Origin: a virus
Strand: one strand, 5' to 3'
IMG/VR virus record: IMGVR_UViG_3300017991_000003
Location: 96,001 to 160,000 of that record
DNA length: 64,000 nucleotides
The notes under the pieces were generated by a model. The model was not told where the DNA came from. It ran no database searches and saw only the letters and a list, made by a program, of their open reading frames with translations. Position 1 is the first letter of the stretch. Each line of letters opens with the position of its first letter. This document shows, piece by piece, positions 19,433-37,164 of this stretch. Both the position numbers and the translations under genes were made by a program.

Positions 19433-19560
19433 ACACAGCCCCCTGTTTTTGGCTTTCTAGGTACCACCAGGAGGCCTAAACTGGCTGTGTGCCCTCGACG
19501 TCGACTTTCCACTACGAGCATGTCTTTGACCCGTCCCAGACCGTCCTCAAGGGGCGGTCT

Positions 19561-20151
19561 ATGGATAGTGGCCACGGGACTGATCACGGATCTGGTCGTG
19601 GACGGCACGCTGCGGATGAGCCGCCGGAGCGCGTAAGTAAGGCGAGGAGGCTGAGTTACCGCGAACGACGTAAGCGCGGGCTGTCGCTGGCTGAGAGCTG
19701 GCTCACGGAGGATCGACCGGTGGAGCAGATGAACGACGAGGGTGCCAAGTACGGCGAGGCCAAGATCCGCACCTACCACCCATCCGGCCGGGTCACGGAC
19801 AAGAAGCATGTTCAACACCGCACCAAGCAGGGGAAGAACCCGGCGGGGCTCCAGCACAAGGAGACGGGTAGCACACCTGGCGGCCCTAAATGCAACGGCG
19901 GTAACCCCATGGTGAAGCGAGGGATGTCGGTGGCGGATGTGCGTCGAGTGGTTGAGGAGCCGCGCCTCGAGGGGATGGGGGAGAAGCTGGCTGAAGAGTT
20001 GGCTCCTGCGATTGATCCTGCGACCCGTATCCCGGGTGAGGACCCGAAGAAGCGGCTAAAGCGTCAGGCAGTTGCTTACGCCCATGAGGGGCTCCAGGCG
20101 CGGCGCAAGCTCGAGGCTCACTATCAGAATCGAGCGTTGAGGAATGGCTGA
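19561..20151 (+). CDS. hypothetical basic protein
   Basis: ATG 19561 with AAGGGG upstream; ORF track gives alternative GTG start at 19489. Confidence 0.4.
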   Translation: MDSGHGTDHGSGRGRHAADEPPERVSKARRLSYRERRKRGLSLAESWLTEDRPVEQMNDEGAKYGEAKIRTYHPSGRVTDKKHVQHRTKQGKNPAGLQHKETGSTPGGPKCNGGNPMVKRGMSVADVRRVVEEPRLEGMGEKLAEELAPAIDPATRIPGEDPKKRLKRQAVAYAHEGLQARRKLEAHYQNRALRNG

Positions 20152-20350
20152 GCGACAGTCTCGAGCGGTAGGTCGGCGACAGCGGCACGGCATCCCGGTC
20201 TCTGTCCCTCTCCCTAAGTTCTTGAAGCCAGCCAACTTGCGTCGAATCTCAGAGCGCAAACAAGAGAGCCCGGGTCGGACGTGGCCAGAGCTGATCCGCG
20301 AGGAGATCCTCAAGAGCGCCAAGAGCAAGAAGGCAGCCCGCCCGAACTAA
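20144..20350 (+). CDS. small basic protein (68 aa)
   Basis: ORF track; ATG overlapping upstream stop. Confidence 0.35.
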   Translation: MAERQSRAVGRRQRHGIPVSVPLPKFLKPANLRRISERKQESPGRTWPELIREEILKSAKSKKAARPN

Positions 20351-20429
20351 AAAACAGCTAGACCCCGAGGGAGGGGCCTAGCTGCGGGCAAGGAGGCCCG
20401 AAGGCCCCTCCTGCCCCACCATCACCTGG

Positions 20430-20918
20430 TCACGCGAGCTGCTCGGTCGGGATGACCCGGCCGTTCTGGCTCGCGCGGTGAGCGCGTCGGACCACTTCGG
20501 GGTCCTGGTGGGGGTGGTGGTCGTCGACGGTTCCGACGACCGGGAAGGTCTGCCGCTTGCGCGGCACGGCGATCCTGACGAGGCTGAAACCTTCCTTGCG
20601 GCAGTTCTTCTGCCACGTCCGTGCCTTCTGATCGATGAGCATGTCGCCGAGATCGTCGACGGTGATGGTCATGCGCAGCAGCCAGGGCGCGGCCTTGGCC
20701 AGCTGATCCAGGTCGAGGAGGAGAACGACCGGCATCTGGTCGCCCTTGAACCAGACCTCGTAGGCCTGGTACGCCTTCTGGCTGTCCCCGACCGTGATGA
20801 GGTCGTTGGGGTTCAGGGGGATTGCCGCGAAGATGCGGTCGGCCTGGCAGGCGAACTTTACGGCGTGCCCGCCGCGGAGTTCGAAGGCCCGGAACAGCCG
20901 GGGTTTGTAGTTAGCCAT
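20430..20918 (-). CDS. hypothetical protein (162 aa)
   Basis: ORF track; ATG 20918; promoter-like motif 40 bp upstream. Confidence 0.5.
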   Translation of the reverse strand: MANYKPRLFRAFELRGGHAVKFACQADRIFAAIPLNPNDLITVGDSQKAYQAYEVWFKGDQMPVVLLLDLDQLAKAAPWLLRMTITVDDLGDMLIDQKARTWQKNCRKEGFSLVRIAVPRKRQTFPVVGTVDDHHPHQDPEVVRRAHRASQNGRVIPTEQLA

Positions 20919-20957
20919 GGGTGGTGTGATGGTGGTGGGGTGAAACGGATCGTCACC

Positions 20958-20968
20958 CTACTTATGCC
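20958..20968 (-). promoter_or_regulatory. promoter-like motif copy (CTACTTATGCC)
   Basis: 40 bp upstream of ATG 20918. Confidence 0.5.
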
Positions 20969-20970
20969 AC

Positions 20971-21642
20971 CTACCCCTCCTCTTCTGGCCGGTCAGGGTC
21001 CACGACCCGGTCAGGGTCCAGACCCTCGACCTTGATGACCTCGGCAGCCGACAACCACTCCACACTGTCCACCGGGACGGCATAGGTGCCTACGGATTGA
21101 TAGTGCTTCTCGCTTAGCATCGTCATCAAGCCGAGGTACTCCGTAGAGTCGCGCAGGCGCAGCATGACTTGCGTGTGGTGCGCGGGGCAGATCACGTGGT
21201 AGACGAGGGTCTCGTGATCATCCAGCTCTTGCTGAGCCCTGTGCCACGTTTCTGGCTCAGGCTTCAGAGCTCGGCCGATAATCCCGCGGCTGATCATGGA
21301 GGCACCTTCTTGATCCGCAGCCTGGGCGCGGTGTAGGGCCTCAGGGATGGGGGGTGCCTCGTCGACGGCGCCGGCGATCATCACGATCGGCTTGTCCCCG
21401 AGCATCTGAACCATGCCCAGCGAGATGTCTATGTCAGGATCTCGGCCCAATAGCCTCTCGGTGATCCGCAAGATCTGATTGGGGTCGATCTTGACGCCTA
21501 CCTCGATACGCAGCGTTCGCCCCTCGTACCCCTCCTTGAGGATGGCGAAGGGCATGGAGCTGTCGATCAGGTAGTTCAGGACAATCTGAACCAGCTCGTG
21601 ATCGTTTCGAGCCAGGTGGATGGTGTTAGCCATGTCGGTCAT
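20971..21642 (-). CDS. hypothetical protein (223 aa)
   Basis: internal ATG 21642 in ATGA overlap with upstream gene. Confidence 0.5.
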   Translation of the reverse strand: MTDMANTIHLARNDHELVQIVLNYLIDSSMPFAILKEGYEGRTLRIEVGVKIDPNQILRITERLLGRDPDIDISLGMVQMLGDKPIVMIAGAVDEAPPIPEALHRAQAADQEGASMISRGIIGRALKPEPETWHRAQQELDDHETLVYHVICPAHHTQVMLRLRDSTEYLGLMTMLSEKHYQSVGTYAVPVDSVEWLSAAEVIKVEGLDPDRVVDPDRPEEEG

Positions 21643-21935
21643 CAGGCGCCCTCCGGAGAGCAGTAGATTACCCACTGGGTCCCTTTGGGGAGACCCGGGA
21701 TCTCGGTGTAGGACAGGCCCCCGCCGACCAGGGCGAACAGCTGATCGAGCTCGTTGCCGAAGACGGAATGCTCAGGCACCTCGAGGCCGTATGTGTCACT
21801 GTACGTGACTTCGAGGGCGGTGATGTGCTGCATCTGGCCATTGATGGTGAGCCACATCCCGTCCTTAGGGAGCGCTCGGCCGGGGTGATCGGGGTCGAGC
21901 TCCCAGTCTGGGAGCAGGTTGACGATGTTCGTCAT
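21642..21935 (-). CDS. hypothetical protein (97 aa)
   Basis: internal ATG 21935 (MTNIVNLL); promoter-like motif 34 bp upstream. Confidence 0.45.
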   Translation of the reverse strand: MTNIVNLLPDWELDPDHPGRALPKDGMWLTINGQMQHITALEVTYSDTYGLEVPEHSVFGNELDQLFALVGGGLSYTEIPGLPKGTQWVIYCSPEGA

Positions 21936-21968
21936 GGTGGTTGTAGGGGGTAAAGGGGGCGCGTCACT

Positions 21969-21979
21969 GGACTTATGAC
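21969..21979 (-). promoter_or_regulatory. promoter-like motif copy (GGACTTATGAC)
   Basis: 34 bp upstream of ATG 21935. Confidence 0.5.
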
Positions 21980-21981
21980 CC

Positions 21982-23907
21982 ATGCGTCCGCGCGCTTGGC
22001 TTACACTTTTGGACGTGGCTACGATCAAGAACACCCCGCAGAGCGAGCTCATCGAGAGCCAGACCTGTCCCTCGGCTCTCCAGGAGCTTGTGGACCTAGT
22101 AGATACCCAGCTGGAGACCGTCCTAGGGCCGCTGGGGTTCGATCTAGAGATCATCTACGCGGAGATCAAGGGCAAGCAGGCGGGGGATCTCTGGGACGCG
22201 GTGGTGACGGGCCCTCTCGAGGCGGCAGGCTCGGCGGTGGAGGAGGCGTTCGGATACGACCCGACGTCCATCTCAGCTAGTAAGGCGGAGATCGAGAACG
22301 CGCTCACGGCCATCGTGGATCCGAACAACATCCTGGCGGCCCTCACCCCAATCAAGGAACTAGGCGGGGCGCTCCTGTCTACGGACAAGCTGGTAGAGGG
22401 GGATCTGAGCCCTACGGGGCTGATCAACCAGATCCTGGACCCGACCAAGGAGAAGCAGCTCGACGGTCTTACCGAGTGCAATGAGAACGTGGTCACGGCC
22501 ACGGCGGCAACGATCACTCAGGTTGTAGCCGGTGCGGCTAACGAGGTGCTCAAGAAGGTGGGGGCAGCTCAGTCGATCCTCAGCATGGGTATGTCGCAGC
22601 TGGAGAACTTCGGCGAAGGCCTCTTCCTGCTCGCGGGAGACGCGCTGAACACGGTTCACAACGCTGAGATCATTCTTATCGACCAGATCCTCGACGTCCT
22701 CGTTGAGATGCGAGCGCTGGTGGAGGAGATGGGGAACGAGCCCTTCGGTTTCAACCACTCCAAGGTGGTGCAGGCGGCTCAGACCAACCTGCTCCAGGCG
22801 GACTCCCTCCTGTCGGCGGTCCAGGCAAAGATCGAGACTCGAGCGGGGTTTGACGGCACCTCCTACGACGCGGCTCGATCGATCATCCAGTACGTAGAGG
22901 AGCTCTTGTGCGAGGCGTCAGATGAGTTCGATCTCGGCTTTAGCTCGAAGCCGTATCGACTCCTGTCCCTGGTCTTGACCCTCGAGGCCTACCAGGCTCT
23001 CTGGTATGCCCGGGCTCAGAAAGGGGAGAGCAGCGCGGAGGGGTTGATCAGCTTCCCTGGCAGCCTGCTGAGCCAGCTCCAGACGGATAACTTCTTCTCC
23101 CCGATCATCGCTCTGGTTCGTTGCCAGTTGAACAAGGTGATCCAGGACATGGCGGATACGGACATCCGCGGCGAGCTCCTGCTCTACATCACCAAGGAGA
23201 AGAAGTGGTGCCTCGAGCTCAAGGTCCTGAACGAGACGATGAAAGCCTCGCGCAGCCTTCTTGAGGCGGGAGATGAGGCAGCCGAGTTCTCGGATCTGAT
23301 CCTGGAGGGTGTGGAGACCTACGAGGATACCAAGAAGCTGGTTACAGCTACCGCAGCCGAAGCGCAGGAAAGCATCACAGATGTCCTCACCTACGCACGA
23401 CTCAAGGTCCAGAACCAGTTGACCCCCACTAACCGAGTGACCTCTCGAATCGACGAGGCGGTATCCATCCTCACGCTTCGACGCTCTCAGATCCAGGCGC
23501 AGAGCCAGGCGCTCCTCAGCCTGCTCGGCTTGGGTAACACTGATTTCCTGCAAGGGCTGGCCTACGCCAAGCAGTTCGCAGAGTTCCTATCAGGCAAAGG
23601 CCTGGACGCCATGCTAGGGAGCCTACTTGACGGGGACTTCGACGGTGTCTTCGGGGCTGACGCCTTGACAGCCTCGATAGGCGGCAAGGTAGAGGCCTAC
23701 GCCACCAAGGTCCTCGGCTGTCTAGACACCCAGGACCCAAGCGCGACTGACAAGCTATACACAGTAGCAAAGCAGGCCAACGACGATCTTCGGGCCCAGG
23801 ACGTGCTCGTCAATCTCATCGACGGCTCTGCTTCGCTGTTTGCTCAGGGGGCGCTACTTGAGGCGCAAGAGCGCAGCGTCGACCTGAGCACGATCGAGCT
23901 AAGCTGA
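21982..23907 (+). CDS. large hypothetical protein (641 aa), L/A/E/Q-rich, probably alpha-helical
   Basis: ORF track; ATG 21982; palindromic element overlaps its stop. Confidence 0.6.
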   Translation: MRPRAWLTLLDVATIKNTPQSELIESQTCPSALQELVDLVDTQLETVLGPLGFDLEIIYAEIKGKQAGDLWDAVVTGPLEAAGSAVEEAFGYDPTSISASKAEIENALTAIVDPNNILAALTPIKELGGALLSTDKLVEGDLSPTGLINQILDPTKEKQLDGLTECNENVVTATAATITQVVAGAANEVLKKVGAAQSILSMGMSQLENFGEGLFLLAGDALNTVHNAEIILIDQILDVLVEMRALVEEMGNEPFGFNHSKVVQAAQTNLLQADSLLSAVQAKIETRAGFDGTSYDAARSIIQYVEELLCEASDEFDLGFSSKPYRLLSLVLTLEAYQALWYARAQKGESSAEGLISFPGSLLSQLQTDNFFSPIIALVRCQLNKVIQDMADTDIRGELLLYITKEKKWCLELKVLNETMKASRSLLEAGDEAAEFSDLILEGVETYEDTKKLVTATAAEAQESITDVLTYARLKVQNQLTPTNRVTSRIDEAVSILTLRRSQIQAQSQALLSLLGLGNTDFLQGLAYAKQFAEFLSGKGLDAMLGSLLDGDFDGVFGADALTASIGGKVEAYATKVLGCLDTQDPSATDKLYTVAKQANDDLRAQDVLVNLIDGSASLFAQGALLEAQERSVDLSTIELS

Positions 23908-23926
23908 CACTGGGAGGGAGTGTCAG
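23904..23926. repeat. palindromic element copy 2 (CTGACACT-GGGAGGG-AGTGTCAG)
   Basis: overlaps stop codons of the convergent genes 21982-23907 and thyX. Confidence 0.8.
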
Positions 23927-24780
23927 TAAGGCTGCGTCTGCATGCCTGTGATCTCCAGAAGTCCGTCGACCTCTTCGGTCTGAGCATCGAACAAGAGGCC
24001 CGGGCACTGCTCCATCAGGATCTCGTAGACCTGGTTGAAGATCAGGCGGATTTCCCATTCGGCATGCCGGGAGGTGCGCATCATCAGCATGTGCCGCAGG
24101 GAGCGGACGTTAGCGGACCACCCCAGCTCGTTGGCTTGCCCGTTGGGAAGGACGCGTCGCAGGGCCGAGGTGACCTTCTTCTTGGTAGCGAAGTCCCGGA
24201 TCGGCTCGTCCGGTAGGGCTGATGGGTCTCCCCAGCTGCGGCGCGCTTCCTCGAGCTCGTCATCGGAGCAGACGCCCAAGCGGAGCCGCATCGCGTCGTA
24301 GTGGTCTGTGATGGCGTTGATGACTAGCTCTACTTCATCCATGACCGGAGCCAGGATAGGGTCGACGACGACGTCCAGCTGATCCGTGCGGACGTACCGA
24401 CCACTGGTTTGACTGAAGGCCGTGCCGGCGCGATGCCGAACCATCTCGTGGGTGAAGACGCGGGAGCAGTTCGTGGTTACGAAGTTGAAGGACACATGCT
24501 CGAAGACGCTGCCGTGTCCGTGCTCCAGGGTGGCTCGCACGTTGTCGGCGATGTCACGCGTGCGGCTGATGTTCTCGTTCTTGCCTGGGGTCAGGGCGCT
24601 GTAGCAGAGCTTGGCGTAGAAGCTCGAGATGATCTCCAGATCAGACAGCCCCTGCTGCCTCGCCTTGGCGATGTCAGCCAAGAAGGAGGATTGGTTCGTG
24701 GCTCGGAGATACCCGCTGACAGCGTGGAGGTCCAGCTGGGTGCATCCGATGAGGTGTGTGGTGGGTTCGACGATGGTCAT
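23923..24780 (-). CDS. thyX: flavin-dependent thymidylate synthase ThyX
   Basis: ThyX signature R-H-R-x7-S in HEMVRHRAGTAFSQTSGRY; internal ATG 24780 (MTIVEPT) preferred over ORF-track 24864. Confidence 0.8.
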   Translation of the reverse strand: MTIVEPTTHLIGCTQLDLHAVSGYLRATNQSSFLADIAKARQQGLSDLEIISSFYAKLCYSALTPGKNENISRTRDIADNVRATLEHGHGSVFEHVSFNFVTTNCSRVFTHEMVRHRAGTAFSQTSGRYVRTDQLDVVVDPILAPVMDEVELVINAITDHYDAMRLRLGVCSDDELEEARRSWGDPSALPDEPIRDFATKKKVTSALRRVLPNGQANELGWSANVRSLRHMLMMRTSRHAEWEIRLIFNQVYEILMEQCPGLLFDAQTEEVDGLLEITGMQTQPY

Positions 24781-24896
24781 AGGTGTAGGGGGCTGCGGGG
24801 TTGAGGCTCCAGTAAAGCAGATGGGACCGGCTTCTGCCTTGTTCTTGTCTCTTTTTCTTGACAAGCAGGCACACGCGCAAGAGACTGAGTCAGATC

Positions 24897-24908
24897 GGTC
24901 ATGAGTCC
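24897..24908 (+). promoter_or_regulatory. promoter-like motif copy in plus orientation (GGTCATGAGTCC)
   Basis: same core CATGAGTCC on the coding strand, about 95 bp upstream of exonuclease ATG 25001. Confidence 0.4.
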
Positions 24909-25000
24909 TATGAGGCCACCGGTGTTGATCACATCCCTAGGCCACACCCGAACTAGGTGAGAGCCGGCTCCTGCCGGCCCTTCTGTTTTTGGAACCAAGC

Positions 25001-25792
25001 ATGAAACGACCCTTCGCTCCCTTTGACATCGAGACCGCCAAGGTCCTTCCAGAGGATGTCGAGGACATCCGAGAGCATCGCCCGCTGGGAGTCTCCTGCG
25101 CCGTCCTCGTGGTCGGTGATTCGGTCCCTCTTCGTTTCTTCAACCCCGACGATCTCGCGTGGACCCAGGAGCATGCGCAGATGTTCCTGACCACGCTCGA
25201 GCAACACATCGAGGACGGCATCCGCGTGGCTAGCTGGAATGGTCTTGGCTTTGACCTTGACATCCTGGCCGAGGAGGCTGGGGAAGGGGAGTGGCGCGAG
25301 AAGGCCCGCAAGATCGCACTCAACCACTACGACTTGATGTTCCAGGTCATGTGCACCAAGGGCTATCCGGTTAGCCTCCAGAACTCCTGCAAGGGCTTCG
25401 GCCTCGAGGGTAAGCTGGCATCGGTCGGCGGCGCCAAGGCCCCCGCCATGTGGGCGGAGGGGCATAGGCAGGAGGTCCTGGACTACTGTGCTCAAGACGT
25501 GAAGGCGACCCTCGAGGTCTTCGAGTCTGTGGAGTATGCAAGCGAGTTCCGGTGGATCTCTAAGAAAGGGCGCCCGAACTCGTTCGACTGTCCGGAGCTC
25601 CTGACGGTTTCGCAGTGCTTGGAGCTCCCGGAGCCGAACACGAGCTGGATGGACAACCCTATCCCGCGGACGGCTTTCACCCACTGGCTGTACGAGGATG
25701 TCGAGCGTCCGATGCAGCAACCTGTCACGAAGCCCGCAGACCCCACTCCAACAGGGTTTGGTGAGCTGGACTTCATTCAACCCAGGCAGTAA
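25001..25792 (+). CDS. DnaQ-like 3'-5' exonuclease
   Basis: FDIET (Exo I D-x-E) and YCAQDV motifs; ATG 25001 (ORF-track start 24989 is TTG). Confidence 0.55.
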   Translation: MKRPFAPFDIETAKVLPEDVEDIREHRPLGVSCAVLVVGDSVPLRFFNPDDLAWTQEHAQMFLTTLEQHIEDGIRVASWNGLGFDLDILAEEAGEGEWREKARKIALNHYDLMFQVMCTKGYPVSLQNSCKGFGLEGKLASVGGAKAPAMWAEGHRQEVLDYCAQDVKATLEVFESVEYASEFRWISKKGRPNSFDCPELLTVSQCLELPEPNTSWMDNPIPRTAFTHWLYEDVERPMQQPVTKPADPTPTGFGELDFIQPRQ

Positions 25793-25794
25793 TC

Positions 25795-26106
25795 ATGGCC
25801 ACACACTTCTGCGTCCTTCAAGACGCTATTCGACCTCTGAGTTCCGAAGAGGACGCGACCCTCCTGGCGTTCCTTCAATGGTGCCGAGAGAGCGAGACCC
25901 GCGCTGCGTGGGTAGATGCCTCTGCTTACGTGCTCGAGGGCACGCATTCCGTCATCATTGATGCAGGACTTCTGCGGGGTAACCTGGAGTCTGCGTACTC
26001 ACTCAACCAAGGAGAGCTTCCCTGCCCGGACGCTGTTCGAGACGTCCTCCCCATCCTGGCCAAGCTCTGTGATCAGGATACTCCCCTCGTCTGGCTCAGT
26101 TGGTAA
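25795..26106 (+). CDS. hypothetical protein (103 aa)
   Basis: ORF track; ATG 25795. Confidence 0.45.
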   Translation: MATHFCVLQDAIRPLSSEEDATLLAFLQWCRESETRAAWVDASAYVLEGTHSVIIDAGLLRGNLESAYSLNQGELPCPDAVRDVLPILAKLCDQDTPLVWLSW

Positions 26107-26109
26107 CCC

Positions 26110-26343
26110 ATGCAAGACAAAACTCACATCGTCGTGATGACTGTTACGAGCGGCCGACCCTCCGATGAGGTGGCCAAGCAGGTCCGGCAGCAGTTGGCTC
26201 ACGCAGACTGCCCGTTCACGACCACGCGCGTGCAGGCGGCAGAGCTACCGGAGCACGCGCAGATCACGCAAGTAACGGTGGGGGCCAAGACGCACCCCGA
26301 GTCCCTGATCTTTCCCATCGAGCTGGTCTCGAGCAATGACTGA
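26110..26343 (+). CDS. hypothetical protein (77 aa)
   Basis: ORF track. Confidence 0.4.
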   Translation: MQDKTHIVVMTVTSGRPSDEVAKQVRQQLAHADCPFTTTRVQAAELPEHAQITQVTVGAKTHPESLIFPIELVSSND

Positions 26344-26869
26344 GCATCTATCCCTCACGCCTAGGGTCAAAGGCGCGCATGCCTTCGCAACCGCGGCCCA
26401 CATGGGCCAAGAGCGCTTCACCGGTGAGAACTACATCACCCACCCTGAGGCCGTGGCCGAGATCGTCTATCAGGCCTTTGGCCACGAGGCGATGATCGAG
26501 TCGCTCCTCATCCTCGCGCTGCTTCACGACGTCTTGGAGGATCAAGGGGAGCACATCTTTCTCGAGGAGCTCCAGGTCGTCGACGGGTTCAGCTACAAGC
26601 TGGTCCTTGAGAAGGATGTGGGGATGATCAAGCTGGCATCCGAGGTCTTGCTCCGTCGTGATGAGATGGGCGCCCTCTGGGCTCTAACTAAGGGATCGAA
26701 AGAGCCGTACGACCAGTATGTCGATCGGTGCCTAGGTAACGCGCTGGCTCGCAAAATCAAGTGGGCCGACACGACGCACAACCGGAGCACGTTGCCCGAG
26801 GGGCACAGCCTCTTCGCGCGCTACAACAAGACCCTGGCCCGTCTAGACGAGGTGCTGTCCGATGAATAG
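26336..26869 (+). CDS. HD-domain hydrolase, SpoT/Mesh1-like (putative (p)ppGpp alarmone hydrolase)
   Basis: N-terminal AHMGQERFTGENYITHPEAVAEIV followed by LALLHDVLEDQ (HD motif in RelA/SpoT hydrolase context). Confidence 0.6.
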   Translation: MTEHLSLTPRVKGAHAFATAAHMGQERFTGENYITHPEAVAEIVYQAFGHEAMIESLLILALLHDVLEDQGEHIFLEELQVVDGFSYKLVLEKDVGMIKLASEVLLRRDEMGALWALTKGSKEPYDQYVDRCLGNALARKIKWADTTHNRSTLPEGHSLFARYNKTLARLDEVLSDE

Positions 26870-27098
26870 CCACCCGTACCTAGAGCGGTGCCCGTGCTGC
26901 GGGGATGCGCCGTTCGATCCGTTCATGTACGGGTCAGTGTTCCTCGATGGCTGGCAGCGTGTCTGGGAGGGCATCAAAGCCTTCCTCGGGCGCCGCCCCC
27001 CGCGGTACATGACCCTCATCTGCTGGAAGTGCAAACACATCGTCGCCCACGTAGGGATCGACGGCGGCATGAACATGGAGAAGAAGCATGGCTCGTAG
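26862..27098 (+). CDS. small zinc-ribbon protein (78 aa)
   Basis: CPCC...CWKC cysteine pairs. Confidence 0.45.
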   Translation: MNSHPYLERCPCCGDAPFDPFMYGSVFLDGWQRVWEGIKAFLGRRPPRYMTLICWKCKHIVAHVGIDGGMNMEKKHGS

Positions 27099-27621
27099 CT
27101 GGACGCAGTTCGAGCAGCAGGTAGCTAGCCCCCCGTACGCGCTGTCCGAGGAGGCAGCGAAGGACTGGGTTACTCACGCTGAAGCCGGGAACATCGAACT
27201 CTGGGTCAACAACCTCTACCTGGTACTGATCTACCGAGGCGACATCGTCCCGTGCGACGACGCCCTTCGCCCGCGTAACCCGGTGTGGTTGAGCATCCGG
27301 CGTGTGGAGCGCGGGAAGCTACCTCGAGACTGGCGTGACCTCCAGAGGATCAAGAATGAGATCCTGGGTACGCAGTACGAGCTGGTTGAGCTCTTCCCTG
27401 CTGAGGAGCGGCTCGTGGACGAGGCGGATCAGACGCACCTCTGGGGCTTCGAGTCTGTCGGCGCGCGCTTCCCGTTCGGCTACACCGAGCGGGTCATCGG
27501 TACCCCTGAGCAGGCTGAGTCTCTTGGTGGAACCCTACGTGAGTTTGAGTACAAGCCTGGCGAGTGGCATCACCCGCCGGCTCGCGAGCGTCGTGAGGCG
27601 CAGGAGGGCTCTGATGCCTGA
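27088..27621 (+). CDS. hypothetical protein (177 aa)
   Basis: ORF track; GGAG upstream of ATG. Confidence 0.5.
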   Translation: MARSWTQFEQQVASPPYALSEEAAKDWVTHAEAGNIELWVNNLYLVLIYRGDIVPCDDALRPRNPVWLSIRRVERGKLPRDWRDLQRIKNEILGTQYELVELFPAEERLVDEADQTHLWGFESVGARFPFGYTERVIGTPEQAESLGGTLREFEYKPGEWHHPPARERREAQEGSDA

Positions 27622-27805
27622 GTATCGTGTGTATGCCCTTGTGCGCGGTTCTAAGTACCTCGGCACGGTCGAGGCTGACAGCAAGGAAGAGGCCGAGAAG
27701 GTCGCATGGAATGAGCTCGATCACTTCGTGGGGCTATGCCATCAATGCTCCAAAGAGATTGATGATCCTGAGGTCGATGAGCTCGACATCCTGGAGAACG
27801 AATGA
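27614..27805 (+). CDS. hypothetical protein (63 aa)
   Basis: internal ATG 27614 overlapping upstream stop; contains CHQC. Confidence 0.4.
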   Translation: MPEYRVYALVRGSKYLGTVEADSKEEAEKVAWNELDHFVGLCHQCSKEIDDPEVDELDILENE

Positions 27806-27823
27806 GTAAGAAGACGAGCGCTG

Positions 27824-28084
27824 ATGAGTGACGCAACCAAGCAGAGGAGTCTGGATCGAGAACTGTGTGGCGTTCCACGCTACGAGCTGTGGCTGGAGTA
27901 CCCTGAGAGCGATTCATGGAGGTGCCTTGATCTGCGGCAAGAGCATCGCTTCAGCAGCAAGAAGAAAGCCTTCCAAGACGCTAAGTACTACACCCAATGG
28001 CATCCAGATCGTGGACGTGCCTGCGTGTTCGATCGTAAGACAGGACATGTCATAGCGGTTTTCTACCCGGAGCAAGGCAAATGA
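27824..28084 (+). CDS. hypothetical protein (86 aa)
   Basis: ORF track; preceded by a 9-codon mini-ORF that duplicates the start of the next gene. Confidence 0.4.
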   Translation: MSDATKQRSLDRELCGVPRYELWLEYPESDSWRCLDLRQEHRFSSKKKAFQDAKYYTQWHPDRGRACVFDRKTGHVIAVFYPEQGK

Positions 28085-28332
28085 GTAAGAAGATGAGCTC
28101 GGCTGTGGCCGAGGCTTTGAACATCAAGCGGGCTCATCGAGCCATCACTGCGCTCGCCGCGTACAAGCAAACGCAGCTCGGCGAGTCTGGTCCTGTGTGT
28201 CGGGATACCCTTGTTGACCTGTTGGTTGATCTGCGGCACGCGCTGGACGTCGTGGATCTAGGCATCACGCTCGAAGAGGCTCTTCGGATCTCCGAGGACC
28301 ACTACACCATCGAATCCGCCGAGGCCGAGTAG
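28081..28332 (+). CDS. hypothetical protein (83 aa)
   Basis: ORF track; GGAG upstream. Confidence 0.45.
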   Translation: MSKKMSSAVAEALNIKRAHRAITALAAYKQTQLGESGPVCRDTLVDLLVDLRHALDVVDLGITLEEALRISEDHYTIESAEAE

Positions 28333-28366
28333 CCTCACAACCCTGGGACCTAGGTCCCTTTTAGCC

Positions 28367-30778
28367 ATGCACCGAGCCACACTCATTACCACCGTCCCCA
28401 ACCTCCCCAAGTTCATCCTACGCGGCGTTGTACCACTGCCGCGTGGCTACACATTCGGCGGACCCGGCCAGGACTGCCCTTTTACCATCAAACACCCCCT
28501 GCTGGATGAGAACTGCCCGACGCAGTGGCAACCGGTAAGCTACTACCCGTCGGAGGTGGGACAGGACGCCGAGGTCGCGTCGGCCGAGATTCTTGCCGTG
28601 ATCGACCGCGATGATCTTCCGCCGGGTGTGCGCGCCTTCTTCCAGCTACATGAAGAGGCCAGTGCCTGGTCGTACCCCGAGCCGGCCACCGAGGCGATCC
28701 TGATGACGCAGATGAAGGACGCGGTGCGTCTGCGCGCTACGGATTTCTTCGGCAACGTCTACGAGGCATCCCTGTCTCGCAACATGTTTGCGCAGGTCCC
28801 CGGAGGCCCGAGCGGGCTACCCACCGGTCCGGGAACGATCCTCGACACGCGGACGCATCGCATGGGCTGTGCGATGGGCACGGTGGAGACACACGGGTGG
28901 CTTGACAAGAAGGGCCCGGGTACGGCGGAGGCCCTGCCGTGGTTCTTGGGCTGGCAGGCATTCTTCTCTGTCCGCACCGGCTCGGACGTGGTCGAGCTCG
29001 CGCTCAACGTGCACAACGCCTTCAGCCCTCCCAAGAATCTGTCGGACCCTGCGGGCCATATGTACTTCAAGGAACTCAGCCTGGTGGTGCCCAAGGGCTG
29101 GGCGATCATGTCGGAGTGGCCAGAGCCGTCGATGGGTTCTCCGAAGCCTGATGACAACGACGCCTTCTACGTCATCCCGCTGGTGGCGGCCAATGAGGAC
29201 GGCACGATGCATATGATGGCGCAGCAGGCGGAGCGGGAGTGGCGCCTAGTCCTCTTTGAGGAGGGGAACCAGAGCAACGCACAGGAGGTGCTCAACCAGT
29301 ATGGTTGGGCTGTCCCCGCGCACGACACTGCCGAGGCGGGCCTTGAGAATCCCTGGTGCTGGCAGAACGAGGAGACGGGGAACTACCAAGCACAGCGTTT
29401 CCCGGTCCCGTCCCTGGACCCGCAAGCCTGCCTGGAGCGCACCCTCGTCGAGTACTCGAAGATCCGGGCGGCGTTGGCCTCTCGTACGGCGGTGCAGTAC
29501 CCCGACGCCAAGCCTTATGGTTACTTCCATCCCTACGGCGTGTCCTATGGTGGCATGACTGGGGGCAGCGAGATCTTCCCCTTCGACGGTCTCGTGGAGC
29601 TTACGGCCGGGTCGGTCGAGGGCTTGCTCTACACCCGAGCGCTGCACTTCATGTACAGCTGTCGTCAGCAGGGGATGATCTACAACATCAAGGGCAAGCC
29701 GACCCGCTTCGAGGACTACCTCAAGGATGGGACGTGCGACTGGCACTACCTCAACGCCAAGTGGTATCCCGGCTATGACGGGGACTACGACTTCCTGAAC
29801 GCTGTCTCGACACACCGGCCGGCCATCGAGGCCGCGGGACAGCTCCCGGTCTACGAGCCGCAGGTGACTCGCGAGTATGGCAGCTACTCTTCGTACTATC
29901 AGCCGCAGGACTTCCAGCACTACGTCCGACGCACGCGTAGCTGTCGGACGCTGGCGTGGCTGGACAACGACCCGCTAGCCAAGCGCAAGCTCGAGATGCT
30001 CGCCGAGATCGGGCTGATGTGGTACCACGACATGCCGAGCAACTCGGCGGCCGGCGTCTTCGGCCACCTCTCCACGGAGATCACCGACGGCGGCGACGGC
30101 ATGACCATCCCCGAGGGGCGTGGCGCTGCTTGGGTCATGGACACGGCGGCCGCGGCCTATGCCGTAGGTGAGAAGAGCTGGCGAGACCGCGCTGTCGTCC
30201 GCTCCTGGTTCGAGGCGGTGACCTTCGTACTACGCTCAAGCCTGACCCCGGCCGGCATCTGTCAGGGCTACCGCAAGGGCAAGATGGTCACCATGCACCC
30301 CTTCCTGGGGCAGTACGTCGTCTGCCACCCGTTCGAGCAGGGCCTCCTAGCCCACGGCATGCAGGCCATCCTCAAGTCGGTGTGTGAGGGGCTCGAGGGC
30401 GCCGAAGAAGGACTCTGTCGTGAGTTCCTCCAGATCCAGGCTGATGGGCTGGCCCGCTACATGTGGCGTGACGGTACTGGCGGCGCGTGGACGAAGATGG
30501 CGGTGGGCCCACTCGATGGTGAGCCCTTCGAGTCCATTGACGAGGTCCCCGAGGACGGGTTCTATGGCCCCTACCCCGAGGTCTGGCAGATCGTTCCCGG
30601 CATGGCCTACGCGCTGGCCGATCCCGAGCTCTCCAACGTGACGCGCACCGCACTCATGGCTCGGGTCACGGACTATGCTGGCGGGCACCCGGATCCTGTG
30701 GAGTGGTTCGAAGGGCAAGGCCTGAAGATGATCGAAAACCGGGCGCCGCTGCTTGCATGGCTCCAGTTGAACGACTAG
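28367..30778 (+). CDS. large hypothetical protein (803 aa), W/Y/G-rich; possibly enzymatic or structural
   Basis: ORF track; ATG 28367; followed by hairpin plus T-tract terminator. Confidence 0.65.
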   Translation: MHRATLITTVPNLPKFILRGVVPLPRGYTFGGPGQDCPFTIKHPLLDENCPTQWQPVSYYPSEVGQDAEVASAEILAVIDRDDLPPGVRAFFQLHEEASAWSYPEPATEAILMTQMKDAVRLRATDFFGNVYEASLSRNMFAQVPGGPSGLPTGPGTILDTRTHRMGCAMGTVETHGWLDKKGPGTAEALPWFLGWQAFFSVRTGSDVVELALNVHNAFSPPKNLSDPAGHMYFKELSLVVPKGWAIMSEWPEPSMGSPKPDDNDAFYVIPLVAANEDGTMHMMAQQAEREWRLVLFEEGNQSNAQEVLNQYGWAVPAHDTAEAGLENPWCWQNEETGNYQAQRFPVPSLDPQACLERTLVEYSKIRAALASRTAVQYPDAKPYGYFHPYGVSYGGMTGGSEIFPFDGLVELTAGSVEGLLYTRALHFMYSCRQQGMIYNIKGKPTRFEDYLKDGTCDWHYLNAKWYPGYDGDYDFLNAVSTHRPAIEAAGQLPVYEPQVTREYGSYSSYYQPQDFQHYVRRTRSCRTLAWLDNDPLAKRKLEMLAEIGLMWYHDMPSNSAAGVFGHLSTEITDGGDGMTIPEGRGAAWVMDTAAAAYAVGEKSWRDRAVVRSWFEAVTFVLRSSLTPAGICQGYRKGKMVTMHPFLGQYVVCHPFEQGLLAHGMQAILKSVCEGLEGAEEGLCREFLQIQADGLARYMWRDGTGGAWTKMAVGPLDGEPFESIDEVPEDGFYGPYPEVWQIVPGMAYALADPELSNVTRTALMARVTDYAGGHPDPVEWFEGQGLKMIENRAPLLAWLQLND

Positions 30779-30824
30779 ATTGAGGGTCGATCGCAGGTAG
30801 GCATCTGTGGTCGGTGTAGAGGTA

Positions 30825-30863
30825 GGCCCGGTACCGCACGCAGCGGCGCCGGGCCTTCTTTTT
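30825..30863 (+). terminator. rho-independent terminator-like hairpin plus T-tract
   Basis: GGCCCGG...CCGGGCC followed by TTCTTTTT after stop of 28367-30778. Confidence 0.55.
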
Positions 30864-30865
30864 AG

Positions 30866-30888
30866 CTGGCACTGGCTAGGAGTGTCAG
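30866..30888. repeat. palindromic element copy 3 (CTGGCACT-GGCTAGG-AGTGTCAG)
   Basis: sits between a plus-strand and a minus-strand hairpin terminator at a convergent junction. Confidence 0.8.
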
Positions 30889-30912
30889 TAAAAAGAGAGC
30901 CCCGAAGGGCTC
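30889..30912 (-). terminator. rho-independent terminator (minus strand)
   Basis: GAGCCC-CGAA-GGGCTC hairpin followed on minus strand by TCTTTTT. Confidence 0.6.
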
Positions 30913-30944
30913 CGGCCCCTGAGGGCTCCGGCCCCGCAGGGGGC

Positions 30945-31286
30945 CTACTGGTCTCGGCGCTTCTTGAGATCCTCGATCCAGCGGGAGACCGCTTCGATCA
31001 TCTCGTACGGCACGCCCTCGTGCCGAAGGATCGCCTCGGCATCGGCGATCTGCTGGTTGAGCTCCGGGCGGGCCAGCTCCGGTTCGGGCTCCGGCTCCGC
31101 CGTCTTCGCGGTGCTGGCGCCGCAGGCCGCGAGACCCATGACGGCCTCGCCGACCTTGGCGATCTCGCCCGCGAGCTCGACGACGTTCCCCTCGAGCTCC
31201 CAGCTCGAGGCGCTTTTGAGGACCTCGCGACCGTCATCGGTCAGGACGGTGAGGGTGTAGGCGGGGATGTTGATCGAGATTTTCAT
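30945..31286 (-). CDS. hypothetical protein (113 aa)
   Basis: internal ATG 31286 (MKISIN); own promoter-like motif, conserved leader hairpin and terminator. Confidence 0.5.
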   Translation of the reverse strand: MKISINIPAYTLTVLTDDGREVLKSASSWELEGNVVELAGEIAKVGEAVMGLAACGASTAKTAEPEPEPELARPELNQQIADAEAILRHEGVPYEMIEAVSRWIEDLKKRRDQ

Positions 31287-31305
31287 CTGGGTGGGTGGTG
31301 GTGAT

Positions 31306-31335
31306 GGTGTCTCCGGAGTAGACATCTCCGGATCA
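31306..31335 (-). promoter_or_regulatory. conserved 5' leader element with hairpin (stem TCCGGA/TCCGGA, loop GTAGACATC)
   Basis: aligns with the 46202 and 47869 copies; stem differs by a compensatory pair of substitutions. Confidence 0.55.
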
Positions 31336-31337
31336 CT

Positions 31338-31348
31338 AAACACATGCC
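31338..31348 (-). promoter_or_regulatory. promoter-like motif copy, variant (AAACACATGCC)
   Basis: 52 bp upstream of ATG 31286. Confidence 0.4.
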
Positions 31349-31385
31349 CCACAACCCCCTCTTAGTTGCTGTTTCAGGTACCAGC

Positions 31386-31407
31386 TAAAAGAGGGGCCGA
31401 AGCCCCT
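31386..31407 (-). terminator. rho-independent terminator (minus strand)
   Basis: AGGGGC-CGAA-GCCCCT hairpin with TCTTTTAG on minus strand. Confidence 0.5.
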
Positions 31408-31429
31408 AGCCGGCTTACGGGCCGGCGAC

Positions 31430-31627
31430 CTAGCTCACGATAGCGGCATAGAGTGCACCTGATCCCAGGGCCATCCACAGGATGACACCCACGATCATGG
31501 CTCCGATGAAGAGCCAACTCACAGTCGCCTCATACCAGTCGGCGTCCGCGCCGGGTCTGAGATCCTCTCTGCCGCGGATCAGCCACGGGATGAACTTGAA
31601 GGCCATGACGAGGGCGAAGGCCAGCAT
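31430..31627 (-). CDS. small membrane protein (65 aa)
   Basis: ORF track; two hydrophobic segments; hairpin terminator downstream. Confidence 0.4.
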   Translation of the reverse strand: MLAFALVMAFKFIPWLIRGREDLRPGADADWYEATVSWLFIGAMIVGVILWMALGSGALYAAIVS

Positions 31628-31662
31628 AGGAGCCCAACTACCCAGCAGAACAATACCATGGT

Positions 31663-32067
31663 CTATACCTCCTCCTCGAAGAGCTTCCAGACCTCGAAGT
31701 CGCTGAGCCGGCGCCTCGAGCCGTCCTGCATGACCCAGCAGGGATCACCCATCACATCGAACTGGGCCAGCGTTACGCGGTCGTTCACGTCATGCCACGT
31801 CTGGGCTACATGCACCGGGTGAGACCGGAGCGTCGTCGGCACGACCCGGGGCAGGACCTGGTCCGTGCGGCTCCACAGCTTGGTGGATGGCGTGCGGCTG
31901 AAGGTCAGCTGACCGTCCAGCAGGATCTTCTCGAGTCGACGAACGTCCTCAGCCATTCGGTCCTCACCAGCGGCCTCAAGGCTTTCTCGATCGGCAGCCA
32001 GCATCTTGTAGAGCAGGGTGACAAGCTCGAGTTCCATCTCGAAGGCGAAGATCGCTGTGTTACTCAT
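31663..32067 (-). CDS. hypothetical protein (134 aa)
   Basis: ORF track; ATG 32067. Confidence 0.45.
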   Translation of the reverse strand: MSNTAIFAFEMELELVTLLYKMLAADRESLEAAGEDRMAEDVRRLEKILLDGQLTFSRTPSTKLWSRTDQVLPRVVPTTLRSHPVHVAQTWHDVNDRVTLAQFDVMGDPCWVMQDGSRRRLSDFEVWKLFEEEV

Positions 32068-32118
32068 CGGGCATCTCCAGGCTCTGGAAGCAGTCTTCGG
32101 TGCGTTTTCGGATAGTCA

Positions 32119-32355
32119 TCAGGAGTCCTCGTCAAGCGGCCCAAGACCGAAGAAGTCGGGATCACAGGCGAGGGCTTCACAGGCCTCGTGTGCCGCTGCT
32201 TCGGTCAGGATGCGGTGTTCCAGGACTTCCCAGGACAAGGCCCAGTCGCCCTGTTCGCTTTCGCGAACCATGTGCTCCAGGCTCGTGGCCTCCCACCTCA
32301 TATCCCCTTCGGGAACGAGGAGGGTGACCGCGATCTGGATCTTCTGAAGGCCCAT
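32119..32355 (-). CDS. hypothetical acidic protein (78 aa)
   Basis: ORF track; start overlaps upstream stop. Confidence 0.4.
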   Translation of the reverse strand: MGLQKIQIAVTLLVPEGDMRWEATSLEHMVRESEQGDWALSWEVLEHRILTEAAAHEACEALACDPDFFGLGPLDEDS

Positions 32356-33530
32356 TAGAAGGCGATCTTCTTGAGGACCTTGCCGCCGGCCGTCTCGAGG
32401 GTGACCTTCTTGTCGCCGTGCGGGATGTCCCGCGCCAGCTCCGTCAGACCACCGACGAACGCCCAGGCCGTGAGGGGATCGCCGTAGCGGTCCTCACGCT
32501 CAGCAGCACGATCGAGCCCGTCTCGGATCAGGCCGAGCGGGAGCCCGAGCTTCTTGTCCGAGAACAGGAAGTCCTCGGCCTCGTCACGATCGTCGCCCAG
32601 CCTGAACCGGCGAGCCGCCTCGATGGCGTTCTCCTCCGTATCCGTTCGGCTGTTCATGTAGTTCGTGACCTTGCCGCGGGCCTCACCCCAGCGCGCTTTG
32701 ACGCTGCCGACGTGACGCAGGCGGAACTCGAGGCTCTGCTGCACACCCCAGATGATGTGGTTGCCGCAGACGCCATCGAAGATGAACGCGAGGCCCACGA
32801 GGGCACCGTCGCCCACCTCGGAGTTACGCCAGATCATGCCGCGCATGAACCTGTCCTCCTCCCCGAACGAGCGCTCGGGGTGGACCATCAGGAAGAAGCA
32901 GTCGTGGTCCGACACGTAGACACCGGCGGGGGCGATCATGTCCCCCTCCTTCACCTGGATACCGCCCTTGTTGCCCTCGATCAGATCGTCGGCCGTAGCC
33001 GGGCGGGCACGCGGGTCGTCGGGGTTGGCCGGCCGTGCCGGCGGGACCTTCCAGCCCAAGTTGGTGAAGGGTAGCAGCCTGTCGGCCACCTCCCAGTTCC
33101 AGATGCGGGCGTACCGGTCAGACGTCCACGAACGCAGCGTCAGGACGTCCTCCCCGTCCTGGTGGAAGAGGAGCTGCTTGACGGGTTCGTCGTCGACGTC
33201 CTGGGCTTGGAGGTTGTAGTTGAGGTTCTGCGCGGCCATGGAAGTCGGCAGCCGGCGCATGTAGTCGGCAGGAACCCGCATGGATCGGCACAACTGCCCA
33301 AAGGCGTAGTGCGTCATCATCGCGGGCTGCCCGTTGGCGCCGACTAGGCGTAGGTCACGCTGGCCTTCGTCGCCCACCTCCCGCACACGCAGGACGCTGG
33401 GACGAGCAGCTGATTCGATAGCACGCTCGGCGTGCTCGTAGGCGGCGACGCGCGCTTCTTGAATGGTCCAGAAGCGCTCATCGTCAGGGCGGGTGAGCCA
33501 TTGGCTCGCCGCGGTCATGATCTCGGTCAT
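32355..33530 (-). CDS. hypothetical protein (391 aa); weak resemblance to DUF932 phage/plasmid family
   Basis: ORF track; ATG 33530; motifs VSDHD and VCGNH recalled as DUF932-like, not verified. Confidence 0.55.
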   Translation of the reverse strand: MTEIMTAASQWLTRPDDERFWTIQEARVAAYEHAERAIESAARPSVLRVREVGDEGQRDLRLVGANGQPAMMTHYAFGQLCRSMRVPADYMRRLPTSMAAQNLNYNLQAQDVDDEPVKQLLFHQDGEDVLTLRSWTSDRYARIWNWEVADRLLPFTNLGWKVPPARPANPDDPRARPATADDLIEGNKGGIQVKEGDMIAPAGVYVSDHDCFFLMVHPERSFGEEDRFMRGMIWRNSEVGDGALVGLAFIFDGVCGNHIIWGVQQSLEFRLRHVGSVKARWGEARGKVTNYMNSRTDTEENAIEAARRFRLGDDRDEAEDFLFSDKKLGLPLGLIRDGLDRAAEREDRYGDPLTAWAFVGGLTELARDIPHGDKKVTLETAGGKVLKKIAF

Positions 33531-33542
33531 ATTGTCCGTGGG

Positions 33543-33896
33543 TTAGATATCACAAGGACCCCAGTACAGCCGCTTGCGACGACGTGTTGAGAGGCCTGGG
33601 GGCGGTCGCAGTGTGGGGTCTTGCTGTAGCGCGTCGTACATTAGGTCTTGTACCTGCTCGCCTAGCTTGATTTCTGTGACCCCGTTCCTGGAGCAGAAGA
33701 AACCAGAAGCGCCCTGCTCGTAGGTTTTCAGGACTGCGGTGTAGCGCACCGCGATGAAGGTCACGACATCCGGAAGATCAAAAGTCTTCAGGAAGTCGTG
33801 GATGAGTTGAGCGGCAAACTGAGCTACGCCGTGTTGATCACCGTCGATACGTAGCCAGACATGTTGTGGGAGTGGCCTCTTGTCTTGATCGAGCAT
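33543..33896 (-). CDS. hypothetical protein (start ambiguous)
   Basis: ATG 33896 chosen; ORF-track start 34073 would give an 8-nt overlap with the upstream gene and is equally possible. Confidence 0.4.
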   Translation of the reverse strand: MLDQDKRPLPQHVWLRIDGDQHGVAQFAAQLIHDFLKTFDLPDVVTFIAVRYTAVLKTYEQGASGFFCSRNGVTEIKLGEQVQDLMYDALQQDPTLRPPPGLSTRRRKRLYWGPCDI

Positions 33897-34065
33897 GGTA
33901 GGCTCAATAGTGATGATCAGGTCTTGCTGCGGCGTGCCCGCTCTTGGAGTCGCGCTGACGGAGTGCCTTTGATCTGTGCCGGGCCGCCATTGAGCGATCT
34001 GTTGCTGCCACCACTGAACGTGCGCTGGCGCTGGGGCGGGTACGGAGGTGCAGAGCTGTGTGTAC

Positions 34066-34518
34066 CTATTCATTGACCTGCTGCTGCTGTTGCCGGGCCT
34101 GCTCGCGTTGATTCAGGATGTACCGAACCCCGGCATCGCCTAGCTCGTGGATGCTCTTGAACTCGACCCCTTCTCTGCTGATGAGGGCGACGGACGCTAC
34201 CTGCTCATTGAGTGCCGGCTTAGAGCACCATCCCACGACGATCACGTACCTGACGTCGTTGCGGTTGAAGTACTCTAGAAACTCGCTGACCTTGTTGGCG
34301 GCGGGCTCTAGCTCCGAGCCCTGGTCGTCACAGTAGAACCACACCTGTTGCGTCTCGATCTCGAAGTCGAACCGCCACTCGTCATCGATGTCGTAGTCCA
34401 CCGCGTCGGCGTGCTCGGCGTGCTCAGCCTGCTGTGCCTTTACGTCGTACCACCAGTCGAGCTCCTCTTGATCGGTTACGGGGATCTCGAAGGAGAACTG
34501 GGAATAGTACTCAGCCAT
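34066..34518 (-). CDS. hypothetical strongly acidic protein (150 aa)
   Basis: ORF track; every codon checked against the sequence; D/E-rich, W-rich. Confidence 0.5.
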   Translation of the reverse strand: MAEYYSQFSFEIPVTDQEELDWWYDVKAQQAEHAEHADAVDYDIDDEWRFDFEIETQQVWFYCDDQGSELEPAANKVSEFLEYFNRNDVRYVIVVGWCSKPALNEQVASVALISREGVEFKSIHELGDAGVRYILNQREQARQQQQQVNE

Positions 34519-34795
34519 CAGCCGGCGCCTCCTCGGGCTTGTTCTTCTCGAGGAAGTCCTCGACGTACTCGTTGATGATGGTCATGGCCGACGCGGTGTC
34601 ACCGGTGTCCTTGATGAGATCGCTTGCCTTGAAGAGCACGTTGATCGGGCCCATGGCGTCGATCTTGTCGCGCGCCTCCATGAGCTCGCAGATCCAATCC
34701 ACGATCTGGTCGTGGCGTTGGCGGACGATGGTGGTGCACCCGAGGATCTCGGAGAGGCGCTTCTCGACTTCGGCTTTGTGCTTGCTGTTGGTCAT
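34511..34795 (-). CDS. hypothetical protein (94 aa)
   Basis: ORF track. Confidence 0.45.
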   Translation of the reverse strand: MTNSKHKAEVEKRLSEILGCTTIVRQRHDQIVDWICELMEARDKIDAMGPINVLFKASDLIKDTGDTASAMTIINEYVEDFLEKNKPEEAPADG

Positions 34796-37090: not shown

Positions 37091-37164
37091 ATGTAAAGGC
37101 ATCGATGACCCGTGGGAGAGTTTCCCCACTCTGTGTTGAGCCCACAGATCATCGATGTGATTGA

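Follow-up and report, generated by a model that had tools for sequence, protein, structure and literature searches.

Alarmone signalling, which comprises (p)ppGpp, (p)ppApp and the pyrophosphorylation of tRNA by toxSAS enzymes such as CapRel, is known to obstruct the replication of phages, and phage-encoded hydrolases are one published countermeasure. Phage T7 is restricted by the stringent response (bioRxiv 10.64898/2026.01.27.700999), and CapRel has been proven to be a toxSAS that acts against phages (PMC9712102). Small alarmone hydrolases (SAHs) occur in many phages and prophages, and the stand-alone SAHs of the Salmonella phages PVP-SE1 (PbcSpo) and SSU5 (PaSpo) neutralise all five toxSAS toxins tested (Jimmy et al. 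2020; PMC7229694). SAHs also reverse the toxSAS modification of tRNA by removing the pyrophosphate from its 3' end (Kurata et al.), an 'HD-alarmone PDEase' has been counted among the counter-defences of jumbo phages (Iyer et al.; PMC7824862), and such genes are routinely annotated in phage genome papers (PMC12846349). Here we describe an SAH gene located at positions 26336-26869 (+ strand) of a stretch of 64,000 nucleotides (hereafter the window), which corresponds to positions 96,001 to 160,000 of the IMG/VR virus record IMGVR_UViG_3300017991_000003.

The 177-residue product of this gene most likely removes the 3'-pyrophosphate of bacterial alarm nucleotides, and we consider it probable that it is a catalytically competent, single-domain hydrolase of the RelA/SpoT (RSH) family and that its gene comes from a large uncultured phage. 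Phage SAHs being already established, the protein extends a known kind of enzyme by a new, divergent member, and two refinements can be added, namely a predicted compact, Aph1-like build combined with a Rel-like pocket of an Arg type, and an insertion specific to its lineage. It thus adds a divergent example from a lineage of large high-GC uncultured phages, in which most genes lack a match to any known family. The value of the finding lies in annotation and in a candidate for enzymology; it opens no new question.

An RSH-family hydrolase with an intact active site

The gene is an open reading frame (ORF) running from ATG to TAG. Both peptides quoted in a preliminary description of this DNA were found in its translation, AHMGQERFTGENYITHPEAVAEIV as residues 21-44 and LALLHDVLEDQ as residues 60-70, so that the gene reported there is confirmed. 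Its codon composition (GC3 0.79, GC2 0.35) shows the pattern of a real gene in the 62% GC sequence of the window, from which we conclude that the ORF is gene-like. A later start at Met23 was considered and rejected, since the helix of residues 9-21 is conserved and in register with the homologues.

The similarity of the protein to the RSH family is far beyond chance. A single-sequence search matched it to the N-terminus of NCBIfam spoT_relA (E 9.5e-11); it also matches PHROG 990 'metal-dependent phosphohydrolase' (E 3.5e-25), and all 18 matches of a PDB sequence search were RSH-family hydrolase domains or stand-alone SAHs, with T. thermophilus Rel (TtRel) at the top (E 7.7e-9). A profile based on the protein and 44 homologues retrieved 23 distinct PDB sequences at E ≤0.001, all of them RSH-family hydrolases (E 1e-10 to 4e-32), including SpoT (that of A. 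baumannii at E 3.6e-32), Rel of four species, Aph1, MESH1, RelH and PaSAH. The preliminary description had interpreted the gene as a putative (p)ppGpp hydrolase with a SpoT/Mesh1-like HD domain, a family reading that is supported by these results, as no unrelated HD phosphohydrolase was among the profile matches. The structural model shows an HD-domain fold with the helical topology specific to RSH enzymes, the hydrolase-domain helices being predicted across residues 9-175, and a structural search with the model returned Aph1 as the top match. The protein consists of this one hydrolase domain, without synthetase or regulatory domains. Its identity amounts to 42-46% with a single close relative, to at most 37% with the other homologues compared by BLASTP and to at most about 33% with relatives from cultured phages in GenBank.

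The active site is intact. Ten columns were invariant in the 45-sequence alignment underlying the profile (H22, Y33, H36, H64, D65, E68, D69, D145, N149 and Y163) and three further ones nearly so (Q25, R27 and P37), and the protein has all of these residues. The N-terminal motif A21-H22-M-G-Q25-E-R27...Y33-I-T-H36-P37 (26396-26446, + strand; alignment to TtRel) includes the metal ligand H36. It is followed by the HDxxED motif H64-D65-V-L-E68-D69 (26525-26542, + strand) with two further metal ligands, H64 and D65, and the catalytic acid pair E68 and D69. The C-terminal motif K142-W-A-D145-T-T-H-N149, after which come S151-T152-L153-P154 (the motif is placed at 26759-26782, + strand), contributes D145 as the fourth ligand. 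Both the HDxxED motif and the metal-binding tetrad H...HD...D (H36, H64, D65 and D145) are invariant in the alignment of 45 sequences as well as in one of 19, and K142 is nearly invariant in both. Mutation of the HD motif abolishes the function of Aph1 (PMC10083569), and mutation of the homologous Asp inactivates ATfaRel. Nothing in the sequence suggests a degenerate, RelA-like pseudo-hydrolase.

Of the described enzymes, Aph1 (adenosine 3'-pyrophosphohydrolase 1; PDB 7smg), which stems from a Bacteroides caccae prophage, is the one whose build the model resembles: the window SAH is likewise predicted to be compact, with eight helices and without extra N- or C-terminal helices, and, as in Aph1, a short link joins its T118-K119 and K..D motifs. 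It differs from Aph1 in a loop between N149 and Y163 that is 6 residues shorter, in a net insertion of 24 residues after HDxxED and in the lack of an adjacent MuF-(p)ppApp synthetase toxin. In contrast, human and Drosophila MESH1, C. glutamicum RelH and P. aeruginosa PaSAH are built of nine or more helices, an extra C-terminal one among them (PMC10083569), and these enzymes are cellular and lack the insertion, whereas the protein described here is assigned to a virus. As to the long RSH enzymes (SpoT and Rel), the stretch AHxGQxR-x-G-E-x-Y-I-T-HP is nearly identical to that of TtRel, and the canonical HNMRTL reads HNRSTL; the synthetase, TGS and ACT domains of these enzymes are absent, and the link from T118-K119 to K..D is short.

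The base pocket and the insertion

The Aph1 family is defined by D24, R96, D116, R119, K133 and Y134 (Ahmad et al. 2023; PMC10083569). When mapped by BLASTP and MAFFT alignments, these positions correspond to R27, R131, S151, P154, R162 and Y163 of the window SAH, R162-Y163 (26819-26824, + strand) being equivalent to K133-Y134, a proposed pyrophosphate contact. The three near-base residues differ, including both specificity determinants demonstrated by mutagenesis (D24 and R119), and the protein therefore falls outside the Aph1 family. In a residue-by-residue alignment the base-contacting R43, R44 and S45 of TtRel are paired with R27, F28 and T29, and N149 has its counterparts in N150 of TtRel and N114 of Aph1 (equivalence and roles of the contact residues from PMC10083569); by the register of the HN..T helix, T153 of TtRel probably corresponds to T152. 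Since Arg27, Thr29, Asn149 and Thr152 are as in Rel enzymes that bind guanine, and the Asp/Asp/Arg signature is absent, (p)ppGpp is a likely substrate. The residues of the pocket indicate that it most likely accepts guanine; the enzyme could act on both purines, and its substrates may also include (p)ppApp or 3'-pyrophosphorylated tRNA.

A pocket of this kind is frequent among the relatives. Within the 131 parsable, closest representatives of 50% clusters, the position of R27 is occupied by Arg in 115 and by Asp in 7, and the most frequent combination at positions 27, 151 and 154 is R/S/P, found in 42 representatives including the window SAH, which shares the motif HN.STLP.GHSL..RY with its closest clade. 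Proteins of the Asp type and of the Arg type are both carried by IMG/VR phage contigs. The comparison yields a rule, according to which compact phage SAHs are either of the Asp type, with the Aph1 signature and adenine specificity, or of the Arg type, with a Rel-like pocket, as here; it predicts substrate preference and is cheap to check. As regards distribution, the fold was found in 17 proteins of a viral structure library, relatives lie on 32 IMG/VR contigs, and a search with a protein of the same Arg-type clade (P0125) revealed similar genes in 540 GenBank phage records.

The insertion covers residues ~74-110 (26555-26665, + strand), i.e. the segment between HDxxED and the T118-K119 motif, and is apparent from the motif spacing, from the model and from the BLASTP alignment with Aph1, which contains gaps of 6 and 21 residues at this point. 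The distance from HDxxED to K..D is 72 residues, compared to a median of 48 in the 131 relatives, and the long spacing is restricted to the window SAH and its nearest homologue (P0123; 170 residues, E 1e-28). When 1.84 billion cluster representatives were searched exhaustively with HMMER, 2345 relatives were identified at E ≤0.001, of which P0123 is the only one matching across the insertion in a single aligned stretch. It bears the same insertion with conserved sequence (DG[FY][ST]Y.L..., VLLRRDEM.ALW), which is absent from all other homologues examined. Residues 74-107 are modelled as a three-stranded beta-meander (74-81, 84-95 and 98-107), in place of a short helix-turn-helix in relatives.

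Proposed activity and competing explanations

By analogy with solved relatives, H36, H64, D65 and D145 would hold a divalent metal (Mn2+ or Mg2+), and the E68/D69 pair would, together with the metal, activate a water molecule for cleavage of the 3'-pyrophosphate ester of a 3'-pyrophosphorylated purine nucleotide, by which pyrophosphate would be freed. The gene is an orphan. None of the 88 window ORFs gave a RelA_SpoT or MuF match in Pfam at E ≤1e-3, a search that a highly divergent toxin could escape, and the genes flanking it (for proteins of 77, 78, 103 and 177 residues) encode no synthetase-toxin domain according to Pfam and PHROG. As no synthetase or MuF gene was found, the SAH does not represent one half of a toxin-antitoxin or toxin-immunity pair; neither a toxSAS nor a Tas1/Apk or MuF toxin was found adjacent to it, as a type IV toxin-antitoxin or immunity arrangement would have. 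DUF7694, encoded nearby, was considered as a hidden synthetase and rejected, a PDB sequence comparison having returned only insignificant matches (E ≥0.18). Because there is no adjacent synthetase gene, the SAH is a stand-alone auxiliary gene, packed beside genes of nucleotide and DNA metabolism, and its likely role would be to keep the infected cell out of a growth arrest imposed by alarmones or toxSAS. The description of the PVP-SE1 and SSU5 enzymes, orphan single-domain RSH hydrolases of lytic or large phages with the same proposed role in countering alarmone- or toxSAS-based arrest, resembles what we find here; as in the phage stand-alone SAHs of Jimmy et al. (2020), no cognate toxin was found and the gene lies in a phage genome, the viral assignment being indirect. 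The idea of the preliminary description that the enzyme would blunt the stringent response or an alarmone-dependent defence during infection matches the counter-defence role proposed in PMC7229694.

Several observations weigh against a competent, (p)ppGpp-directed phage enzyme. With regard to the family profiles, spoT_relA matched as the preliminary description would lead one to expect, but Pfam HD_4 (PF13328) scored 26.5 bits, 0.7 below its gathering threshold of 27.2, and covered residues 14-73 only, which is probably due to the insertion splitting the domain; the precomputed annotation of the sequence collection does assign PF13328 to the protein. The near-invariant K142 is replaced by Thr in the nearest homologue. 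The substrate call is based on a handful of residues, R131, R162 and Y163 retain, exactly or by conservative exchange, half of the six positions of the Aph1 signature, R44 of TtRel is replaced by Phe and its M157 has no clear counterpart, and for Aph1, which is the closest structure, ppGpp hydrolysis is not detectable. The insertion interrupts the catalytic domain and may affect its activity, and its beta structure is a prediction of moderate confidence (pLDDT 74-78), the input alignment containing no homologue over that region. Finally, PHROGs and Pfam revealed no recognisable capsid, portal or terminase gene, either among all 88 putative ORFs of the window, with the ten largest proteins inspected at E up to 0.1, or in a further 9 kb upstream on a viral contig.

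The alternative that survives best, though we hold it to be unlikely, is that the main target in vivo is, instead of a free nucleotide, the tRNA 3' CCA end pyrophosphorylated by toxSAS defences directed at translation (CapRel, PhRel and FaRel2), so that the SAH would be a dedicated anti-defence enzyme whose beta insertion helps to handle the tRNA. This would be in line with the restored aminoacylation of FaRel2-modified tRNA by MESH1 and ATfaRel, with the neutralisation of CapRel, PhRel, PhRel2 and FaRel2 by the PVP-SE1 and SSU5 enzymes, with CapRel being an anti-phage system (PMC9712102), with the orphan state of the gene in a phage and with a conserved, lineage-specific insertion to which no role is assigned. 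However, the sequence offers nothing that would separate an activity on tRNA from one on nucleotides, and SAHs known to act on tRNA do so without such an insertion. Furthermore, a tRNA-directed activity overlaps with a general alarmone hydrolase rather than excluding it.

That the protein is instead a (p)ppApp-specific hydrolase of the Aph1 type, inactive on (p)ppGpp and shielding the cell or the phage from Tas1/Apk or FaRel, is improbable, even though Aph1 is its closest structural match. The ppGpp-excluding residues D24 and R119 are Arg27 and Pro154 here, D116 is Ser151, and an Aph1 D24R/R119A variant gains ppGpp hydrolysis (PMC10083569). True Asp-type proteins, both among the relatives and in IMG/VR phages, are clearly separable from the Arg-type clade of the window SAH, and no gene for a MuF toxin or a synthetase was found in the window.

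It is somewhat more doubtful still that the conserved insertion and the translationally coupled trio of a small protein, the SAH and a four-cysteine protein mark a new SAH variant, with a substrate range or regulation unlike that of the characterised SAHs. Such a variant might recognise pyrophosphorylated tRNA or another macromolecular 3'-pyrophosphate, or might be controlled by its zinc-ribbon partner; a physical or regulatory link of the two small proteins to the SAH is possible.

Gene neighbourhood, related lineage and viral context

The SAH gene is the fourth of a tightly packed co-directional run, which begins at 24989 and is bracketed by terminator-like hairpins just 5' of the block (24963-24978, + strand) and just 3' of the short genes (28342-28354, + strand), both of which are consensus matches only. 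The first gene of the run (24989-25792, + strand) encodes a 3'-5' exonuclease of the PolB-exonuclease-like/RNase H fold (PF10108 3e-10, PF13482 2.8e-8), which also matches PHROG 403 'DNA polymerase exonuclease subunit'; the preliminary description had rightly placed an exonuclease here, but its label as DnaQ-like was not borne out, as there was no match to a DnaQ family. Directly upstream of the SAH lies a 77-residue ORF without assigned function (26110-26343, + strand), whose stop shares 8 nucleotides with the SAH start (ATGACTGA). Directly downstream, an ORF of 78 residues (26862-27098, + strand), whose start shares 8 nucleotides with the SAH stop (ATGAATAG), encodes a four-cysteine (CPCC...CWKC), zinc-ribbon-like protein. 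The zinc-ribbon neighbour described earlier is thus present, its label being derived from the cysteine pattern, as the protein had no match in Pfam or PHROG. A DUF7694 protein of 177 residues follows (27088-27621, + strand; Pfam PF24746 3.6e-12, PHROG 7839 6.4e-13). Divergent to the run, the flavin-dependent thymidylate synthase ThyX, also named in the preliminary description, is encoded at 23923-24864 (- strand; Pfam Thy1 1e-40), for which gene callers choose a later start (285 residues).

The contigs bearing P0123 are collinear with the window between 19.5 and 34.8 kb (19489-34795 versus 1-13820 of contig L119), with 16 shared genes at 30-68% identity per protein. The shared order comprises a 663-residue protein, ThyX, the exonuclease, a small ORF, the SAH, the four-cysteine protein, DUF7694, a further small ORF and an 806-residue protein, and the SAH is flanked by the same 8-nucleotide overlaps. 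Upstream, the counterpart of the 77-residue ORF has 58 residues (43% identity, same overlap); downstream, that of the 78-residue protein has 79 (51% identity, all four cysteines kept, same overlap), and the DUF7694 counterpart is syntenic and 63% identical. This second, diverged phage comes from other metagenomes (JGI 3300078350, ENA ERZ28668939 and Logan ERR14976768), and the collinear block defines a small lineage of large high-GC phages consisting mostly of ORFans. From this collinearity we conclude that a single phage lineage has retained the SAH, together with the insertion and the partners next to it, in no fewer than two members that have diverged from each other. The window showed no synteny with the 32 IMG/VR loci carrying SAH relatives and was syntenic only with the close relative (contigs L119-L122), so that no widely conserved module includes the SAH. 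A scan of metagenome contigs with P0123 was dominated by long Rel/SpoT genes sharing one pattern and gave no useful locus.

The viral assignment is well supported but indirect, since no virion genes were recognised and it is based on the IMG/VR classification and on gene content. Window positions 1-12230 are identical, without a single mismatch, to the end of a 91.6-kb contig that IMG/VR lists as viral (IMGVR_UViG_3300018080_003942), and metagenomic contigs between 38 and 193 kb in length encode the identical SAH protein. Roughly three quarters of the about 88 probable genes match no family, and none matched a housekeeping family. The recognisable ones are ThyX, two exonucleases, a sigma-70-like protein, methyltransferases, a Cpn10-like protein, helix-turn-helix regulators and two tRNA-Leu; one window exonuclease matches PHROG 284 at 1e-41, and its closest counterparts come from cyanophages and from an uncultured phage of 485 kb. 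In view of these genes, which are phage-typical, as well as short, co-directional and overlapping, and of the phage-like contexts of the closest SAH homologues, it is very unlikely that the gene belongs to a bacterial chromosome, a plasmid or another non-viral element and serves alarmone housekeeping in the cell or as antitoxin to a distant toxin. Such an origin would fit with SAHs being common in bacteria, with the missing virion genes and with the SAH peptide pattern having found no match in IMG/VR, to which this part of the genome is linked only via another window protein. The weakest alternative, another HD phosphohydrolase resembling RSH enzymes at the HD motif only (a dNTP triphosphohydrolase, 5'-nucleotidase, HD-GYP cyclic-dinucleotide phosphodiesterase or Mesh1-like NADPH phosphatase), could draw on a match to the generic Pfam HD model (24.1 bits), the sub-threshold HD_4 score, the report of human MESH1 as an NADPH phosphatase and the nearby ThyX, but is largely refuted by the PDB profile matches and the structural search and thus extremely improbable.

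Another SAH homologue (P0004), on a 17.4-kb contig (L003) from Logan SRR30650739, lies within a one-strand run of short ORFs that also encodes a nicotinamide phosphoribosyltransferase, a nucleoside deoxyribosyltransferase, a metallophosphatase and a PTH2-type peptidyl-tRNA hydrolase; this neighbourhood is one of phage-like auxiliary metabolism. Two contigs with the identical SAH (L001 and L002, from ENA and JGI) differ from the window by a one-base indel within 16336-36869, as indicated by a shift in the alignment offset.

Elsewhere in the window, a gene at 8938-9711 (+ strand) matches sigma-70 region 3, with a faint Sigma70_r3 match to the same gene in another contig (L004), and PHROG 351 'RNA polymerase sigma factor' was matched in the window at 9e-19; the sequence suggests that the phage redirects the host RNA polymerase. 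A 367-residue reverse transcriptase (Pfam RVT_1) is encoded about 250 bp upstream of window position 1 (3151-4254, - strand, of contig L037; also 898-2001 of L004), and a search of the 7 kb around it for the template/variable repeats of a diversity-generating retroelement gave no such pair. The two tRNA-Leu genes (37004-37090 and 37165-37250, both - strand) have the anticodons TAG and CAA, and a long GTG-initiated ORF across them (36413-37351) is probably spurious. Single ORFs match Cpn10/GroES, glycosyltransferase family 25, a sulfotransferase, an S-adenosylmethionine (SAM)-dependent methyltransferase and DUF5661 (48729-49796). A 1262-residue protein rich in Ser, Thr, Gly and Ala, with many SPSP motifs (49806-53594, + strand), matched no family and, by tblastn, no GenBank phage, and is followed by two more large ORFans (54716-55738 and 55741-58029); judging by composition, our guess is that these three may be tail-fibre or host-recognition proteins.
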